Shown here piece by piece: positions 85-6,352 of a stretch of DNA of 6,352 bases (positions are counted from its first letter, which is position 1; each line of letters opens with the position of its first letter). Made by a program: the position numbers and the translations under genes. The notes under the pieces are model-generated. The model saw nothing but the letters and a program-made list of their open reading frames with translations. It was not told the origin of the DNA and ran no database searches. The DNA is from a virus: IMG/VR virus record IMGVR_UViG_3300005308_000021; one strand, given 5' to 3'.

Positions 85-158
85 TGAAATGTCGTCGCTG
101 TAAAAAACGCGCTGTTAAAATCCGAAAAATTTTTCGGAAATTCAAAGGAAAAAAGTAA
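84..158 (+). CDS. 24-aa highly basic micro-protein MKCRRCKKRAVKIRKIFRKFKGKK; candidate DNA-binding/packaging protein (phiX174 J / gokushovirus VP8 analogue)
   Basis: Translated by hand; it is too short for the supplied ORF track. 14 of 24 residues are K/R and none are acidic. Its ATG overlaps the pilot-gene stop (TAATG at 82..86). Its TAA overlaps the capsid-gene ATG (TAATG at 156..160). It sits immediately upstream of the capsid gene, the position of J in phiX174. Confidence 0.6.
   Translation: MKCRRCKKRAVKIRKIFRKFKGKK
121..138. repeat. Perfect 18-nt palindrome TCCGAAAAATTTTTCGGA
   Basis: Read directly: the two halves 121..129 and 130..138 are exact reverse complements. It lies inside the 24-aa ORF, 20 nt upstream of the capsid ATG. 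A second copy lies at 5628..5645. Confidence 0.8.
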
Positions 159-1792
159 TGTCCTTGACTAACGCCAAGATGAACACGAACCCAATTTATA
201 CCCCTCAAACTATACGCCGTCAGACGGCGCGAGGTATTACCTCGATTGATGCGGGTAAGATGGTTCCTATCGCTGCATATCCTTTGTTGCGCGAAGAAAG
301 CATTGTTTCCGGCCGTGTACGTTTCAACTTTGAAATGATGGAAACGGCGGAAATGCTTATGAATGCCATTAACGTTCGCGTTATGGCTTATTTGGTCCCT
401 ACACTCGCATTTGAACGCTTCAGCGGTTCTATGGACCAATTGAACCGCTCGTATTCTGGTGAAAGCTTTAAAGGCTTGCCAGTAGTGCCTTATATCGAGA
501 CCCATCCAATGGGTGCGCACGGCTCTAATGCCGTTTATAAGTCAATTGGTCTTCATGCGCGGCCTGACCAACAGGTCAATACTGCCTACCTTGAGGCTTA
601 CAATTGTATTTGGAATTTCCGCGCTAAAAATCGTTCTGGCGATTTACAACTCCGCGAACGCTTAGACCCGACCCTAGCTCCTGCCTTCTGGCAACATGAG
701 CGCTTCAAGCATATCGTGCCTGATTTTGACCAAGCTATTATTGACGGTGAAGTTCGTTTGAACGTCCCGGAAGGACGGCTTCCTGTTGTCTTTGACAAAA
801 AGCCGGCTAATCCGGGTTTCCGTATGGTCAATTCGACTGATGGTAATCCGGTTACTGGCCCTTCGAAGCCTATGGGCGTAGATAACTTAGGATTTGTTTA
901 CAAAGACGGTGGCCCCGGCGCTGTATCGTTTGATCCTAACGGCCATCTTTGGGCCGAAATGCGCGAAATGGGTATTACTGTGTCGCTCTCGAATATCGAG
1001 CTTGCTCGAAAGACGCAGGCTTTTGCCAAGCTTCGGGAGCAGTATCACGGCCATGATGATGAATATATCATCAATCTTTTGATGGATGGTATCACCATTC
1101 CTGAGAAGGCGTTTACCCAGCCCATTTTGATTGGTGAGCGAAACACTGTTTTCGGCATGGCGAAACGTTTCGCGTCTGATGGTGCCAACCTTACTCAAAG
1201 CGTGGTGAACGGTGCAACGTTTGTTGATATGTCTTTGCAACTTCCGCGCATTCCTACGGGTGGCGTTATTATGGTCGTGGTTGAGATTACCCCGGACCAG
1301 ATTTTTGAACGCCAGCGCGACCCGTATTTTCATATGCAAAGCACTGACCAATTCCCGCAATATCTGCGCGATACTTTGGACCCTGAAAAGGTGTCTGTCG
1401 TTCCTAATGAGTATGTTGATGTTGATCATAATAAGCCGAATGCTACCTTCGGTTATGGTCCTCTTAATTACGAATGGATGCGTGACGCGCCGCTAGTCGG
1501 CGGGAAATTCTACCGTCCTAAAGTTGACGCTGGCTTTAATGAAGATCGTCAGCGTATTTGGGCTTCTGAAACTAAAAATCCTACTTTGTCGGAAAATTTC
1601 TATATTTGTACCGACATTCATAAGAAGCCCTTTGTCGTTACCAACAAGGACCCGTTCGAGGTCACAAGTACGGGTGAAATGCTTATCCGTGGTAACACTG
1701 TGTTCGGGCCTGCTCTGCATGAGGCAACGAACGATTATGACAAGGTGCTTGCTAAGGCTCCTATGGACCGCATTGTAAAGGAACAAAAGTAA
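158..1792 (+). CDS. VP1: Microviridae major capsid protein (F / VP1 family), 544 aa
   Basis: The size is typical of VP1. The N-terminal block RGITSIDAGKMVPIAAYPLLREESI parallels the conserved gokushovirus block ..TTFDAGYLIPI..DEVLPGD.., followed by ..AYLVPT.. (compare ..FFVPLR..). An AGGA Shine-Dalgarno lies at 146..149, 8 nt before the ATG. It is the longest ORF in the genome. Confidence 0.92.
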   Translation: MSLTNAKMNTNPIYTPQTIRRQTARGITSIDAGKMVPIAAYPLLREESIVSGRVRFNFEMMETAEMLMNAINVRVMAYLVPTLAFERFSGSMDQLNRSYSGESFKGLPVVPYIETHPMGAHGSNAVYKSIGLHARPDQQVNTAYLEAYNCIWNFRAKNRSGDLQLRERLDPTLAPAFWQHERFKHIVPDFDQAIIDGEVRLNVPEGRLPVVFDKKPANPGFRMVNSTDGNPVTGPSKPMGVDNLGFVYKDGGPGAVSFDPNGHLWAEMREMGITVSLSNIELARKTQAFAKLREQYHGHDDEYIINLLMDGITIPEKAFTQPILIGERNTVFGMAKRFASDGANLTQSVVNGATFVDMSLQLPRIPTGGVIMVVVEITPDQIFERQRDPYFHMQSTDQFPQYLRDTLDPEKVSVVPNEYVDVDHNKPNATFGYGPLNYEWMRDAPLVGGKFYRPKVDAGFNEDRQRIWASETKNPTLSENFYICTDIHKKPFVVTNKDPFEVTSTGEMLIRGNTVFGPALHEATNDYDKVLAKAPMDRIVKEQK

Positions 1793-1793
1793 C

Positions 1794-2324
1794 ATGGTTA
1801 TCGCGATTGGTGATTTGGATCGTTGGGTTAATTTGACTCCTAGCTCCACCTTGAAATTGGTGGGCGACGATCCTCGAAAAATCCGCCTTGATGTAAATGC
1901 TCAAGAAAAGGCTCGTCTTTTCTTGACTGATGCCGCGGGCGAAATTCGCTTCCTGTGTACCGTTACTGGTCGGGATCGTGTTGAGTTTTCCATTGGTGGA
2001 GATATTGGAATCTCGACGCCAGATGATGGCGTCTTTATCTCCACCCCTGAACTGGATGAAACTCATTTTGAGTACGAGGGCGAGGAAATTTATACGCGCA
2101 TAGCTCAACGCGCTGCGCGTAACTACGACCTCGAGTTACTCATGGCAAAACAGGCGGAAAACTTTGAAAGACGAATGTATCAAATGGCAGGCGATATTGA
2201 GCGACGAGCCATTGAGCGATACGAGGTCGAAAGGGTCCTTAGCTCGCCAAGCCCTGCTCAAACTCCACCAGTCCAATCCGAACTACCAGAGGACGAAGGC
2301 GCACCCGCTGGAAGCCCTTCTTAG
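1794..2324 (+). CDS. Hypothetical acidic protein, 176 aa; candidate scaffolding (VP3-like) or capsid-associated protein
   Basis: The ATG lies 1 nt after the capsid TAA, and an AAGGA lies at 1778..1782. There are roughly 38 D/E versus roughly 20 K/R by hand count. The N-terminal half looks beta-rich, the middle is a charged helical segment (ERRMYQMAGDIERRAIERYEVER), and the tail is P/S/E-rich. I recognise no family motif. Confidence 0.7.
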   Translation: MVIAIGDLDRWVNLTPSSTLKLVGDDPRKIRLDVNAQEKARLFLTDAAGEIRFLCTVTGRDRVEFSIGGDIGISTPDDGVFISTPELDETHFEYEGEEIYTRIAQRAARNYDLELLMAKQAENFERRMYQMAGDIERRAIERYEVERVLSSPSPAQTPPVQSELPEDEGAPAGSPS

Positions 2325-2325
2325 G

Positions 2326-2853
2326 ATGGAGCCGGGGACTCCTGAACCCGTCCAGGTGGTCGATTATTCGACCGCCATGCGCTCCATGATTGATAGAGCG
2401 TATCTTGATAGCCGTAAGTACGGCGATCAACAAAGGCGCGCCGATAGGATCGGCGCGCACCCCGATATTCTGGAATTTGAGAAACGATTGGTTACTCGTT
2501 TTCGGAAGCAATTAATTCCGCTATTCGCGTTATGCGTTAATCGGGGAGAACATGACCAAAACCAAGCCTATGTTCAAGGCCATAGCAAAGCTAAGTGGGG
2601 CGAGAGCGCCCACAACTACGGTATGGCCGTTGACGTCATTCATTGCGTCAAGGCTTATAATTTAGAGCGTAAGGCTTGGGATTTGATCGGTCATTACGGA
2701 AAGGAAATTTCCGTTCAAGCTGGTATTCCCATAGTATGGGGTGGGGATTGGAAGTTTTACGACCCCGCCCACTGGGAATTGGCTAATTGGAAACAATTAG
2801 TCGGGGACCAGCTACTTAGCTCTGCTAGAAAGGGAACGCTCAACTTAGGTTGA
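2326..2853 (+). CDS. Peptidoglycan peptidase of the M15 / LAS zinc-metallopeptidase family (endolysin-type), 175 aa from the first ATG
   Basis: SAHNYGMAVD at 2605..2634 is an exact SxHxxGxAxD signature (Zn ligands H and D). DPAHWE at 2761..2778 supplies the distal His. The upstream context GEHDQNQAYVQGHSK resembles the R..eQ..l..qG.S block of this family. The track start at 2164 is a TTG. The first ATG in frame is 2326, 1 nt after the TAG of the preceding gene (TAGGATG). Confidence 0.87.
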   Translation: MEPGTPEPVQVVDYSTAMRSMIDRAYLDSRKYGDQQRRADRIGAHPDILEFEKRLVTRFRKQLIPLFALCVNRGEHDQNQAYVQGHSKAKWGESAHNYGMAVDVIHCVKAYNLERKAWDLIGHYGKEISVQAGIPIVWGGDWKFYDPAHWELANWKQLVGDQLLSSARKGTLNLG

Positions 2854-2861
2854 GTGTTTCC

Positions 2862-2898
2862 GCATGCGCCTTTTTTACTTGGAAAAAACGGCGCATGC
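2862..2898. repeat. Long hairpin / inverted repeat in the intergenic region upstream of rep
   Basis: GCATGCGCC (2862..2870) pairs with GGCGCATGC (2890..2898). T6 (2871..2876) pairs with A6 (2883..2888). C2889 forms a single bulge and the 6-nt loop is ACTTGG (2877..2882). That gives 15 bp in total. Each arm carries a GCATGC palindrome. Confidence 0.85.
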
Positions 2899-2960
2899 AT
2901 ATGTCAATTACTTGTGTAAATATGCATTTAGTGACAGGGATTTTTGCAGAAAGGGAAGCT

Positions 2961-3938
2961 ATGTGTATTAATGCTGGAGAACTGCCGGACGGAACAAAAA
3001 TACCCTGTCGCGAATGCTGGCAATGCAGGGAAAGAAAAGTTGATGATTGGGTCGGTCGCTGCATTGCTGAAAGCAAAACTTCAAAAGATGCGCATTTCAT
3101 CACGTTAACCTATGGTCGTGATGAGAATAACGAAAGTGATCACTTGCGATCTGCTGTTTTGACTTACTCTGATGTGCAAAAATACTTTAAGTTATTGAGA
3201 TTTCGGGGTTACAAATTTAGGTATCTAGTAGTCGGTGAGTACGGCTCTATGAAGGGCCGCTCACATTGGCATTTAATAATGTACTGGAAGAATAAAGTAC
3301 CGCCTCATGAGTTGAGCGTAGCGGGAAACGATATAAGATTTAATAACGATAGTTGGCCATCTGGTTTTCAACAGTGGCAAAAAGTTACCCCCGAAACGGT
3401 TCGATATATTTGTAAGTATATAAATAAGGATATAGGGAAAGATGAAAGACAAGCTCATATGTCCATGAGTAAGAAACCTCCTTTGGGGTTTGATTACTTT
3501 AATGACTTAGCTATGCGATATGTTGAGCAAGGTTTGGCTCCACAAACATTTGAATATTCTTTCCCTGAGTATAAGAAGGGCGGAAAAAAGAAAGTGTTCT
3601 ATATGGCAGGCACAACTGCCAAGAATTTTATATCTCAATATTTATCTTTGTGGTCTGCCCACAAAGATGGGCACGCGCCTTACTCGCCTATAGTCGAGAA
3701 ATATGAAGATGCGTTAGCTAGAGGCTTAACAATTCAACCAAGGGATACTTTTTATAAGTATCTTAGAACACCTAACGGTTCGCCCGTTAAACAAGCCAAG
3801 GACCCGGAAACGGGTTACATGGGCTTGTACTATGTCGATGATTTCGATTATTGGAATTGGTATCGTTACGATGACGAGCGGAGTGAGTACCAATGGCAAA
3901 GAGAAACAATAACTCAAAAAATGGAACGGTGTCCGTAA
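2961..3938 (+). CDS. VP4: Rolling-circle replication initiator, HUH endonuclease (Microviridae VP4 / phiX174 gpA family), 325 aa
   Basis: Motif I is HFITLTYG (FITLTY at 3096..3113). Motif II is the HUH motif SHWHLIMY (His codons at 3264 and 3270). Motif III is YICKYINK with two Tyr (from 3405; compare phiX174 gpA YVAKYVNK). The N-terminus MCINAG..PCRECWQCR matches the usual VP4 MC...PCGxCxxCR start. An AAGGGAAG Shine-Dalgarno lies at 2951..2958. The track start at 2850 is a TTG that reads through the hairpin, so I prefer the ATG at 2961. Confidence 0.92.
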   Translation: MCINAGELPDGTKIPCRECWQCRERKVDDWVGRCIAESKTSKDAHFITLTYGRDENNESDHLRSAVLTYSDVQKYFKLLRFRGYKFRYLVVGEYGSMKGRSHWHLIMYWKNKVPPHELSVAGNDIRFNNDSWPSGFQQWQKVTPETVRYICKYINKDIGKDERQAHMSMSKKPPLGFDYFNDLAMRYVEQGLAPQTFEYSFPEYKKGGKKKVFYMAGTTAKNFISQYLSLWSAHKDGHAPYSPIVEKYEDALARGLTIQPRDTFYKYLRTPNGSPVKQAKDPETGYMGLYYVDDFDYWNWYRYDDERSEYQWQRETITQKMERCP

Positions 3939-4351
3939 GTGCACCTTCCTCAAAAGCCCATGAGACGCAAGTTTCAAGGGCTGAATATAGCAACATAAGG
4001 CGCGATCCTACGCGCCTCGATGAACCCAGGACGGTTACGGCCTTAGTTAGGGTTCCACGTGATCCGTTTACCGGTCCAAGATTGCGTAATGTGCGCATCA
4101 GAAAAAATAGTGAAGCTGTCGAAGTACAGTCTTCACATAACTCTATGCACCAAAAGCATTTGGCTTTGAGGCAAGGAGCGCAAGCGAACGATTCTAATGA
4201 AAAAACAAGGTCTGTATCTAATTTAAAACTGTCGCCCGATAGGTCACATTCCACTGTGCGCGAAACAGTCTGTAAGAAACGACCTGAAAATAATAAGCCT
4301 AAAAAGCATGCTCGAAGCGGTTCTAAACGCTTTATACCTTGGTGCCGGTAG
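3893..4351 (+). CDS. Hypothetical strongly basic, probably disordered protein, 152 aa; overlaps the rep 3' end by 46 nt
   Basis: The ATG is preceded by GGAG at about 9-nt spacing (cGGAGtgagtaccaATG). There are roughly 33 K/R versus roughly 13 D/E by hand count. The C-terminus is a basic cluster, CKKRPENNKPKKHARSGSKRFIPWCR. The ORF fills what would otherwise be a 413-nt gap in a compact genome. An antisense ORF of similar length (3787..4254) also exists, so coding status is not certain. Confidence 0.55.
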   Translation: MAKRNNNSKNGTVSVSAPSSKAHETQVSRAEYSNIRRDPTRLDEPRTVTALVRVPRDPFTGPRLRNVRIRKNSEAVEVQSSHNSMHQKHLALRQGAQANDSNEKTRSVSNLKLSPDRSHSTVRETVCKKRPENNKPKKHARSGSKRFIPWCR

Positions 4352-4463: not shown

Positions 4464-4655
4464 GTGCAAAATTCACTTATACAAAGGGCGGTAACGCCTA
4501 TTATAGAGCGATTGGGAACATCGCTTGCGGTTTATCTAGTGGTTACGCTCGGTGCCGAGGCGTCACTAGCTCGTGATATTGGCACTGGTTTGGTTGCGGC
4601 CTGTTTAGTACTCACTGATTTCGCTGTTTCTAAGTTTATTAGAAAGGGTGCGTAA
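4464..4655 (+). CDS. Small membrane protein with two predicted TMDs, 63 aa; candidate holin-like protein
   Basis: A GTG start is preceded by AGGG (4454..4457) at 6-nt spacing. Hydrophobic segments are LGTSLAVYLVVTLGA and IGTGLVAACLVLTDFAV, separated by a short charged loop (EASLARD). The C-terminus is basic (SKFIRKGA). The stop abuts the pilot-gene ATG (TAAATG at 4653..4658). Confidence 0.6.
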   Translation: MQNSLIQRAVTPIIERLGTSLAVYLVVTLGAEASLARDIGTGLVAACLVLTDFAVSKFIRKGA

Positions 4656-5591
4656 ATGTGGGGCGCAATTGCTTCAATAGGCTCGTCTCTGATCGGTGGC
4701 CTATTTGGTAAAAAGAAAAAGCAAGAAAAAACCGTTACTGAAAGCCATGTCGATTATGGTCGCATGGTCCGTGAGGCGGAAGCTGCCGGATTTAACCCTC
4801 TGACTGCTCTAAGAAATGGTGGAAGCGCTGGCTTCTCCGTTTCTACATCAACAACACCTGCCAATCCTCTTAGTTCACCTGTGGCAGGTGGTTTAGCTGG
4901 TGCCGTCGAAAACGGTCTTAATCATTTTCTCGAAAATTATGATCCCTTCCGGGATAATGCTAAGGAAGCCGAATTTGATATCGTTCAGGCACAACTCAAC
5001 AAGCTACAGAATAACGTTTCTGGGTCTGTTGGGTTTGGTGATGTTCCCTCCTATGGCTCTCCTGCTAATCGTGTTGTTTTGGGTATGCCAGTACTCGCAA
5101 CTGCAAGTAATCGTAAAACTGTTGCTGAGACTGTCGCTCCTCCGACCAATCGGGATAAGGAAACGCCCTATAAAGGTCGTGTACCCGAGGGTCATCAAAC
5201 AATGGAAGTCCCCGAACTGGACAACGTAATCCCCACGATTGCAGGCTCCGCTCAACCTAATTCTAATCCTCTTGGTATTCAGCCCCCTGAAACTAAACGT
5301 CCTGAACGCATAAATCCGTATCCTTCTTGGTCGAATTTAGAGCGTAATCCTTGGACTGCTGGGGCTGAGGCTACAGAAGATGCTCTAGGCGATAACTTTA
5401 TTAATTCCACACTCGCGACAGTTAGTGAGTACGGCCATGATGCCGCTTGGAATGTTTATCGCGGTGCAAGAGCTGTTGAGCGGGAACGCCGTGCTCTCTC
5501 GTCTGGTACTGACCGAAAGAAAAACGTTGGCATGAAAGACGTAGTTAAAGACGTCTGGAATAACGGCTTCAAATTTCGTGGTGCCAAATAA
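4656..5591 (+). CDS. VP2: DNA pilot / minor capsid protein (VP2 / H-like), 311 aa
   Basis: The Gly-rich hydrophobic N-terminus MWGAIASIGSSLIGGLFGKKKK and the following ..EAEAAGFNPLTAL.. block resemble the conserved AGLNP(M/I)L region of gokushovirus VP2. The rest is low-complexity and P/S/N-rich, as is usual for pilot proteins. An AGGG Shine-Dalgarno lies upstream. The ORF continues seamlessly across the circular junction at 5507/5508. Confidence 0.78.
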   Translation: MWGAIASIGSSLIGGLFGKKKKQEKTVTESHVDYGRMVREAEAAGFNPLTALRNGGSAGFSVSTSTTPANPLSSPVAGGLAGAVENGLNHFLENYDPFRDNAKEAEFDIVQAQLNKLQNNVSGSVGFGDVPSYGSPANRVVLGMPVLATASNRKTVAETVAPPTNRDKETPYKGRVPEGHQTMEVPELDNVIPTIAGSAQPNSNPLGIQPPETKRPERINPYPSWSNLERNPWTAGAEATEDALGDNFINSTLATVSEYGHDAAWNVYRGARAVERERRALSSGTDRKKNVGMKDVVKDVWNNGFKFRGAK

Positions 5592-5665: not shown

Positions 5666-6352
5666 TGTCCTTGACTAACGCCAAGATGAACACGAACCCA
5701 ATTTATACCCCTCAAACTATACGCCGTCAGACGGCGCGAGGTATTACCTCGATTGATGCGGGTAAGATGGTTCCTATCGCTGCATATCCTTTGTTGCGCG
5801 AAGAAAGCATTGTTTCCGGCCGTGTACGTTTCAACTTTGAAATGATGGAAACGGCGGAAATGCTTATGAATGCCATTAACGTTCGCGTTATGGCTTATTT
5901 GGTCCCTACACTCGCATTTGAACGCTTCAGCGGTTCTATGGACCAATTGAACCGCTCGTATTCTGGTGAAAGCTTTAAAGGCTTGCCAGTAGTGCCTTAT
6001 ATCGAGACCCATCCAATGGGTGCGCACGGCTCTAATGCCGTTTATAAGTCAATTGGTCTTCATGCGCGGCCTGACCAACAGGTCAATACTGCCTACCTTG
6101 AGGCTTACAATTGTATTTGGAATTTCCGCGCTAAAAATCGTTCTGGCGATTTACAACTCCGCGAACGCTTAGACCCGACCCTAGCTCCTGCCTTCTGGCA
6201 ACATGAGCGCTTCAAGCATATCGTGCCTGATTTTGACCAAGCTATTATTGACGGTGAAGTTCGTTTGAACGTCCCGGAAGGACGGCTTCCTGTTGTCTTT
6301 GACAAAAAGCCGGCTAATCCGGGTTTCCGTATGGTCAATTCGACTGATGGTA
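5665..6352 (+). CDS. VP1: Major capsid protein, 5' partial duplicate (overrun copy of 158..845)
   Basis: Same sequence as 158..845, shifted by 5507, and truncated by the window end. Confidence 0.9.
   Translation, partial: MSLTNAKMNTNPIYTPQTIRRQTARGITSIDAGKMVPIAAYPLLREESIVSGRVRFNFEMMETAEMLMNAINVRVMAYLVPTLAFERFSGSMDQLNRSYSGESFKGLPVVPYIETHPMGAHGSNAVYKSIGLHARPDQQVNTAYLEAYNCIWNFRAKNRSGDLQLRERLDPTLAPAFWQHERFKHIVPDFDQAIIDGEVRLNVPEGRLPVVFDKKPANPGFRMVNSTDG

Follow-up and report, generated by a model that had tools for sequence, protein, structure and literature searches.

A predicted M15/LAS endolysin and a candidate holin encoded apart in a small circular microvirus genome

Introduction

How a single-stranded DNA (ssDNA) phage of about 5.5 kb opens the wall of its host is a question raised by the IMG/VR virus record IMGVR_UViG_3300005308_000021, analysed here as a stretch of 6,352 nt (the window). 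An open reading frame (ORF) at positions 2326–2853 encodes a protein of 175 residues, referred to below as the M15 protein, which bears the signature motifs of M15/LAS zinc peptidases and for which a preliminary description, made from the sequence alone, proposed a role in enzyme-based lysis. The model microvirus phiX174 takes a different route: it lyses its host with a single gene, E, which is embedded in gene D and whose product inhibits MraY, and it encodes no muralytic enzyme. The reading that we favour, at a probability of about 0.75, is that ORF 2326–2853 encodes a soluble cytoplasmic M15/LAS zinc metallopeptidase that is most likely an endolysin, and that its most likely partner is the product of orf63, a small hydrophobic protein encoded directly upstream of the VP2 gene.

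Enzyme-based lysis is plausible for this phage, and a lytic role for the enzyme is a reasonable reading, but the idea is already in the literature for its lineage. The novelty implied in the preliminary description is not supported: M15 genes were proposed as microvirus endolysins in 2012 and are annotated in cultured phages of the same lineage. The description itself cautioned that M15 ORFs were already on record for some microviruses; this caution was justified, and too mild. By itself, the M15 gene of the window adds one genome to a documented pattern and changes little. What is new here is a conserved holin-like gene, orf63, that co-varies with M15 and finds no mention for these phages in the searchable literature.

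The M15 protein: family, active site and fold

Both motifs on which the preliminary description relied, SAHNYGMAVD and DPAHWE, lie in ORF 2326–2853 exactly where it had placed them (Table 1), and their joint presence is far beyond chance. In LysB4 the residues aligned with SAHNYGMAVD read SNHNYGVAVD and those aligned with DPAHWE read DYPHFE; in the RB49 peptidase they read SRHLHGFAVD and DGPHLQ, and LysECD7 carries the same motifs in alignment. From these comparisons H96, D103 and H149 are the predicted zinc ligands and D146 the predicted catalytic residue, with the conserved R73 and Q78 predicted to lie on the substrate side. Across 76 homologues of 40–99% identity, R73, Q78, D103, D146, P147, A148 and H149 do not vary, and H96 is retained in at least 90%, a pattern which indicates that the active site is under strong purifying selection.

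Profile searches place the protein in Pfam family PF13539 (Peptidase_M15_4), with a score of 31.5 bits where the curated cut-off is 25 (E = 2.7e-7) and with residues 92–151 covering profile positions 5–69 of 70. VanY (PF02557), a profile also named in the preliminary description, stayed below threshold, at 12.9 bits where 25 are required (E = 0.095), and no single stretch passes alone. Five PHROG families annotated as endolysin match the protein, at E-values from 2.3e-14 (PHROG 465) to 2.4e-8, and a scan of NCBIfam gave no match for either the M15 protein or orf63. The sequence matches in the PDB are all L-Ala-D-Glu endopeptidases: the RB49 L-Ala-D-Glu peptidase (23ri, 1.5e-9), LysB4 (6akv, 2.2e-9), LysECD7 (8q2g, 4.4e-9), Ply500 (2vo9, 2.6e-8) and ChiX (5opz, 1e-3). 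Database searches yielded 184 homologues, nearly all of which carry PF13539.

An AlphaFold2 model, built on the alignment of the 76 homologues, has a mean predicted local distance difference test (pLDDT) score of 92.7 and a predicted TM-score (pTM) of 0.86, and describes a compact globular domain in which nearly the whole chain is taken up by the catalytic fold. Foldseek ranked Ply500, LysECD7, ChiX, LysB4 and RB49 as the best matches, with a probability of 1.0 and target-normalised TM-scores of 0.55–0.73. Ply500, one of the two enzymes with which the preliminary description had suggested a superposition, thus comes out on top; the other, T5 EndoT5, stands among the LdcB, VanXY and VanY enzymes listed from rank 6 on, also at a probability of 1.0. 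All 18 PDB structure matches at E ≤ 1e-3 are M15 enzymes, with Hedgehog N-domains lower in the list; the predicted fold is of the Hedgehog/DD-peptidase type. Pfam, PHROG, PDB sequence and fold comparisons therefore bear out the LAS/M15 zinc-peptidase assignment, and the alignments and the modelled structure together fully support membership in the M15/LAS superfamily (clan Peptidase_MD), closest to the L-Ala-D-Glu endopeptidase endolysins. Zinc binding and specificity for this bond are predicted.

The predicted fold and the H-x6-D...D-x-x-H arrangement are those of Ply500, LysB4, LysECD7, RB49 and T5 EndoT5 (2mxz). As in the T5, RB49 and LysECD7 enzymes of phages with Gram-negative hosts, the protein is globular and consists of a single domain. 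It differs from the L-Ala-D-Glu endolysins of tailed phages in sharing only 24–28% identity with them and in being encoded by a 5.5-kb ssDNA phage, and from the minimal enzymes in an extra N-terminal helical segment of ~45 residues (helix 14–36) and a C-terminal helix (155–168).

Start codon and lack of an export signal

The translation from ATG 2326 begins MEPGTPEPVQ. The ATG lies 1 nt past the TAG stop of the preceding gene, o176, so translational coupling is likely. Gene calls made independently at JGI use the same start (175 aa), and in comparisons with three relatives the excess of substitutions at third codon positions (101 vs 49 and 39) appears only from 2326 onward, the substitutions in 2164–2325 being flat across codon positions in both frames. 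A longer N-terminus starting at TTG 2164 was considered and rejected, since 2164–2325 has no codon-position signal and gene callers choose ATG 2326, which is thus the supported start.

The highest 19-residue Kyte–Doolittle mean is 0.64 for the ATG-2326 form and the TTG-2164 form alike, and a hydropathy scan of both found no hydrophobic N-terminus, signal peptide or signal-arrest-release (SAR) segment, as the preliminary description had stated. Because neither form has a hydrophobic stretch, the enzyme is expected to be cytoplasmic and to need help in reaching the wall. The separate membrane partner postulated for it from the start is therefore supported by the lack of an export signal, and a candidate for it was found in orf63.

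orf63, a candidate holin upstream of VP2

Among the annotated products of the window, orf63 is the only one with a hydrophobic segment of transmembrane grade. It has two hydrophobic cores (approximately residues 17–31 and 38–55) with 11-residue means of up to 2.29, followed by a basic C-terminus, and its AlphaFold2 model is a helix-turn-helix hairpin (pLDDT 82.6), for which Foldseek returned no match at E ≤ 1e-3 among viral structures. A direct database search with orf63 alone retrieved only its own cluster; the family became visible only when hidden Markov models (HMMs) were built, guided by synteny, on genomes fetched for the purpose. Genes like orf63 lie directly upstream of VP2 in a Mesorhizobium microvirus prophage (34% identity, E = 9e-12) and, unannotated, in Tortoise microvirus 47, and genes of the same size, position and sequence pattern precede VP2 in the cultured phages RHph_TM3_3_5A, RHph_TM24 and CRPss-151.

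A profile of 17 family members (A3) retrieved 67 database proteins, among them many that belong to Rhizobium phages or to microvirus prophages in Rhizobium, Agrobacterium and Devosia. PF23987 (Phage_holin_10, ‘Bacteriophage holin Pam3 gp28 family’) is present in many of the remoter matches, at E-values of 5e-15 to 6e-10. A profile–profile comparison by hhalign of the subfamily to which the window belongs (A5) with the PF23987-positive subfamily (A4) gave a probability of 96.7% and an E-value of 3.4e-10 over 63 aligned columns, that is, the whole length of the protein; PF23987 matches at E < 1 are found in 6 of 18 subfamily members. On this profile evidence orf63 is regarded as a distant member of the PF23987 family or as a sister to it. 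We consider it a candidate class-II-type holin and the protein most likely to permeabilise the membrane for the M15 enzyme.

M15 and the orf63 family occur together

An HMM made from four orf63-like sequences was run on related genomes that had been fetched by their capsid protein, and those with VP1, VP2 and Rep were counted. Both M15 and the orf63 family are present in 38 genomes and both are absent from 7; M15 stands without the orf63 family in 3, and the converse applies to 1, a contig whose end coincides exactly with the expected place of the M15 gene. In a neighbour-joining tree of VP1, genomes lacking both occur at about three separate places, leaving aside the outgroup Ebor, a Rhodobacter microvirus of the sister lineage Tainavirinae: in L015, nested next to the window's own clade; in the cultured phage CRPss-154; and in a clade of L085, L087 and L088.

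In each of the three genomes that have M15 but lack the orf63 family, a different small transmembrane ORF is present. In L046 a 45-aa protein (702–839) clearly similar to Ebor Gp1, a ‘putative membrane protein’, is paired with the M15 gene, and in L014 (4257–4439) and L016 (5481–5657) proteins of 58–60 aa with a basic N-terminus and a C-terminal transmembrane domain (TMD) are encoded between VP1 and the o176-like gene. By analogy, such a pairing of a muralytic enzyme with small membrane proteins that stand in for one another looks like the holin pattern of tailed phages.

Some features of the M15-less relatives may be recorded here. The proteins that occupy the M15 slot in L044, L087 and L091 have no PHROG match. 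A small ORF whose product has a lipoprotein-type signal (...VLSGC...) lies just 5' of the VP2 start, or overlaps it, in L085 (117–341) and L088 (36–158 and 5305–5505), both of which have neither M15 nor the orf63 family; it could encode an alternative lysis or exclusion protein. L015 (IMGVR_UViG_3300030412_000581, 7,053 nt), the close relative of the window clade that has lost both genes, has an HNH endonuclease gene at 5779–6114 (PHROG 99) and two small, strongly hydrophobic ORFs at 5411–5554 and 5697–5834; CRPss-154 also has an HNH gene.

A two-component route to lysis

In the proposed mechanism, the M15 enzyme would accumulate in the cytoplasm late in infection until a small membrane protein, most likely orf63, permeabilises the inner membrane and gives the enzyme access to the peptidoglycan. 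The enzyme would then cut the stem peptide, most likely at the L-Ala-D-Glu bond, whereupon the sacculus would fail, the cell would burst and the virions would be released. What the comparisons show is the family membership, the fold, the conserved active-site residues, the absence of an export signal, and that M15 and orf63 are syntenic and occur together; in cultured lytic microviruses of Rhizobium and Roseobacter the homologues bear the label endolysin or M15 metallopeptidase. A lytic role for the enzyme, holin activity for orf63 and a way through the outer membrane are inferred. There is perhaps an even chance of a broader statement, namely that Occultatumvirinae-like microviruses run a true two-component holin–endolysin system split across the genome, whose genes are gained, lost and swapped together.

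Several observations weigh against this picture. With the M15 gene ending at 2853 and orf63 beginning at 4464, the two lie 1.6 kb apart, with Rep and o152 between them, whereas the genes of most lysis cassettes are adjacent; the split arrangement recurs in all relatives. Phylogeny confounds their co-occurrence, as does the limited sensitivity of searches for a 60-aa protein. The hydrophobic cores of orf63 are short (~15–18 residues), and the second contains an invariant Asp. The window orf63 itself has no direct PF23987 match at E ≤ 5 (cut-off 27 bits) and so lies outside formal Pfam membership, and its relatives score 28.6 (P0183, a Rhizobium prophage protein), 26.0, 25.9 (RHph_TM24) and 17.1 bits (CRPss-151). 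The holin label of PF23987 is itself an annotation, a literature search having found no experimental paper on Pam3 gp28, and the searchable literature holds no biochemical evidence for any M15-type microvirus enzyme. Finally, a simple pattern scan, which did not extend to u-spanins or disruptin-like peptides, found no spanin-like lipoprotein, that is, no ORF of at least 25 aa in any + frame with a lipobox after a hydrophobic segment.

Alternative functions

Three other explanations are less well supported than the endolysin reading. In the first, which we consider unlikely, one small protein acting like E of phiX174 (orf63 or an embedded ORF such as 4900–5229) would drive lysis by itself, and M15 would be an accessory, for instance one that speeds the lysis of slow-growing cells. 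Single-gene lysis is the only mechanism established for model microviruses (PMC3394797; established knowledge), and M15-less relatives such as CRPss-154 evidently lyse otherwise (PMC11499846). ORF 4900–5229, of 109 aa in an alternate frame inside VP2, has a very hydrophobic segment (19-residue mean 2.51), and L011 has a hydrophobic ORF of 45 aa at a similar position in VP2. Embedded hydrophobic ORFs of this kind are, however, not conserved: L008 has none, and the others in the window have no counterpart. ORF 4900–5229 is probably a frame artefact, though this is the kind of place in which an E-like lysis gene could be hidden. Across the clade orf63 is the only small hydrophobic ORF that is conserved, and its presence tracks that of M15 instead of replacing it; the strong purifying selection suggested for the M15 active site also argues against an accessory role.

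A second alternative, which we rate as quite improbable, is that the peptidase serves entry, a few virion-borne copies opening the peptidoglycan locally when the genome is delivered, as virion-associated lysins of tailed phages do. The M15 gene lies within the structural block VP1–o176–M15, and the Ebor lysin Gp7 turned up in purified virions on mass spectrometry (PMC11980548); the amounts were only traces, however, and Gp7 is regarded by the authors of that work as a lytic enzyme. No extension for binding capsid or pilot protein can be recognised in the M15 protein, whose chain is nearly all catalytic fold, and its co-occurrence with a holin-like membrane protein fits exit. Moreover, related microviruses without M15, such as CRPss-154, are viable isolates.

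Very improbable, finally, is a role as a carboxypeptidase of the VanY/LdcB kind, remodelling the wall by trimming its stem peptides (D-Ala-D-Ala or L,D) and not lysing it in bulk. Such a role could serve a prophage or carrier state or superinfection exclusion and would suit the Pfam description of PF13539 (‘D-alanyl-D-alanine carboxypeptidase’), the weak VanY match, the LdcB and VanXY structures of the fold search and the many M15 homologues in microvirus prophages of Mesorhizobium, Rhizobium, Agrobacterium and Devosia, but is opposed by the sub-threshold VanY score, by the five best structures and all significant PDB sequence matches being L-Ala-D-Glu endopeptidases (four phage endolysins and ChiX), and by the lack of the signal peptide or membrane anchor through which VanY and LdcB enzymes reach the wall.

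Comparison with known lysis and export systems

ChiX of Serratia marcescens, the third-best structural match, offers a parallel to the endolysin reading outside phages. This L-Ala-D-Glu endopeptidase likewise lacks a signal peptide and needs a holin-like membrane protein for access to the wall. The ChiX/ChiW pair differs from the proposed one in belonging to a bacterial secretion system and not to phage lysis; ChiW is a lambda-type holin unrelated to orf63, and the action is non-lethal and local.

The closest counterparts of the M15 protein are in microviruses of Rhizobium (among others RHph_TM24 and RHph_TM3_3_5A) and Roseobacter (CRPss-151, CRPss-152, CRPss-153 and CRPss-155) and in the Tortoise and Flyfo microviruses, whose M15 proteins are homologous to it at 38–57% identity over 82–97% of the length; no phage protein in GenBank exceeds 57% identity. 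The window shares with the cultured microviruses of Alphaproteobacteria the order VP1, o176-like gene, M15 and Rep, as well as a small hydrophobic gene 5' of VP2. In cultured Rhizobium microviruses mcp, rep and lys form the basic gene set (PMC9512667), and their GenBank records label the homologue of the window M15 ORF ‘endolysin protein’. Likewise, five of six cultured Roseobacter microviruses have an ‘M15 family metallopeptidase’, as do most Occultatumvirinae genomes (PMC11499846).

A microvirus lysin has been characterised experimentally in Ebor, whose Gp7 degrades peptidoglycan in a zymogram and a plate assay (Bardy et al. 2025; PMC11980548) and was called the first experimentally verified case in an ssDNA phage (PMC11980548). 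Microviruses can thus carry working muralytic enzymes, and Bardy et al. noted that a conventional lytic gene is common to Occultatumvirinae and Tainavirinae (PMC11980548). Ebor resembles the window in having its lysin gene at the equivalent position, between the capsid block and Rep, and a small membrane-protein gene (Gp1, 45 aa) upstream of the pilot gene. The proteins themselves differ: Gp7 is of the amidase type and has no similarity to the M15 protein, and Gp1 has a single TMD and is unrelated to orf63. Treating Gp7 as a homologue, and the M15 protein as verified through it, was rejected, as BLASTP finds no similarity between the two and Gp7 matches the amidase family PHROG 822 (9.4e-29); the Ebor zymogram result is accordingly not transferable.

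M15-type peptidases were earlier described in microviruses of the human gut: Roux et al. (2012) reported M15_3 peptidases in 11 gokusho- and alpavirus genomes and argued for horizontal acquisition and an endolysin role (PMC3394797). These M15_3 (PF08291) peptidases of gut Gokushovirinae and Alpavirinae share the clan Peptidase_MD with the M15 protein, and the same endolysin proposal, following horizontal acquisition, was made for them (PMC3394797). The window protein belongs instead to the M15_4 family, in another microvirus subfamily and at another insertion site, and M15_3 is found in a minority of genomes; the two sets of genes appear to be independent acquisitions. With phiX174 the window phage would share lysis of the host by a microvirus and the involvement of a small membrane protein, which is what E is. 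Unlike phiX174, it has no E homologue, and its lysis module would be enzyme-based.

The orf63 family makes the lysis mechanism of a seven-gene phage with a signal-less enzyme directly testable. If the split two-component system is real, orf63 would be the first holin reported from any ssDNA phage, and even phages of 5.5 kb would have swapped single-gene lysis for the strategy of tailed phages, apparently without a spanin. Should orf63 and M15 work together, they would constitute a minimal ssDNA-phage holin–endolysin pair, useful as a compact lysis cassette, and would help to explain why some microvirus lineages gave up single-gene lysis. M15 microviruses may perhaps have done so to lyse slow- or non-growing Alphaproteobacteria that resist E-type inhibitors of cell-wall synthesis.

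Genome organisation and lineage

The window comprises one complete circular genome (5,507 nt), after which its first 845 nt are repeated exactly, and every gene is on the + strand (Table 1). VP1 is 65% identical to that of Tortoise microvirus 47 and ~50% identical to those of cultured Rhizobium and Roseobacter microviruses (range 50–65% overall), which have been assigned to the proposed subfamily Occultatumvirinae (PMC11499846). The neighbour-joining VP1 tree likewise clusters the window with the Tortoise, Rhizobium and Roseobacter microviruses. The genome, circular, with VP1, VP2 and VP4/Rep and of a size within ~4–6.5 kb, is that of a microvirus of the Occultatumvirinae-like, Alphaproteobacteria-associated lineage.

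Table 1. Genes, motifs and the M15–Rep hairpin in the window (positions in nt)
Feature	Position	Strand	Remarks
VP1, major capsid protein	158–1792	+	
o176, conserved 176-aa protein, function not assigned	1794–2324	+	order VP1–o176–M15–Rep kept in ~45 related genomes
M15 (Peptidase_M15_4/LAS) zinc peptidase, 175 aa	2326–2853	+	predicted cytoplasmic endolysin
SAHNYGMAVD (S-x-H-x-x-G-x-A-x-D)	2605–2634	+	residues 94–103; H-x6-D, first two predicted zinc ligands
DPAHWE (D-x-x-H)	2761–2778	+	residues 146–151; predicted catalytic Asp and third zinc ligand
Hairpin	2862–2898	+	directly 3' of the M15 stop; overlaps the probable Rep ATG (2895)
VP4/Rep, replication initiator	2850 or 2895 to 3938	+	PF23343, PHROG 942
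o152, basic 152-aa protein	3893–4351	+	alternative frame; overlaps the 3' end of Rep
orf63, 63-aa hydrophobic protein	4464–4655	+	candidate holin; directly 5' of VP2
VP2-like pilot protein	4656–5591	+	

Near-identical copies of the genome are present in several JGI and SRA metagenomes. The longest contig with the M15 gene, of 22.7 kb (L001, JGI 3300007085 Ga0104045_1001960), was considered as a prophage or larger phage and rejected: it is a concatemer in which the 5,507-nt genome is repeated head to tail more than four times, and presumably reflects an artefact of amplification or assembly, or a replicative form. For M15, VP1 and orf63, the nearest homologues in prophages are in high-GC Hyphomicrobiales (Mesorhizobium, Rhizobium, Agrobacterium and Devosia). 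The genome (1–5507) has a GC content of 46.3%, against ~59–60% in the Rhizobium microviruses, and this does not fit such hosts, so that no host is claimed from the nearest prophages. An iterative search linked o152 to the region of Ebor Gp10, a protein seen in virions by mass spectrometry and proposed to neutralise the charge of the DNA (PMC11980548).

Hairpins in and around the M15 gene

The hairpin that follows the M15 stop has a stem of 15 bp with one bulge and a folding energy of -15.3 kcal/mol as ssDNA (z = -4.6), and it marks the 3' boundary of the VP1–o176–M15 block. A hairpin of similar strength occupies the same M15–Rep site in nearly all of ~43 related genomes (loci L008–L093) with quite different stem sequences, which suggests a conserved structure, be it a terminator, an origin of replication or an element controlling the translation of Rep. 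Within the M15 coding sequence, positions 2436–2458 form a perfect, GC-rich palindrome of 10 bp with a 3-nt loop (GCGCGCCGAT CCT ATCGGCGCGC). In the window as a whole, terminator-like hairpins number 12, about twice the 5.8 +/- 2.3 found in shuffled sequences.

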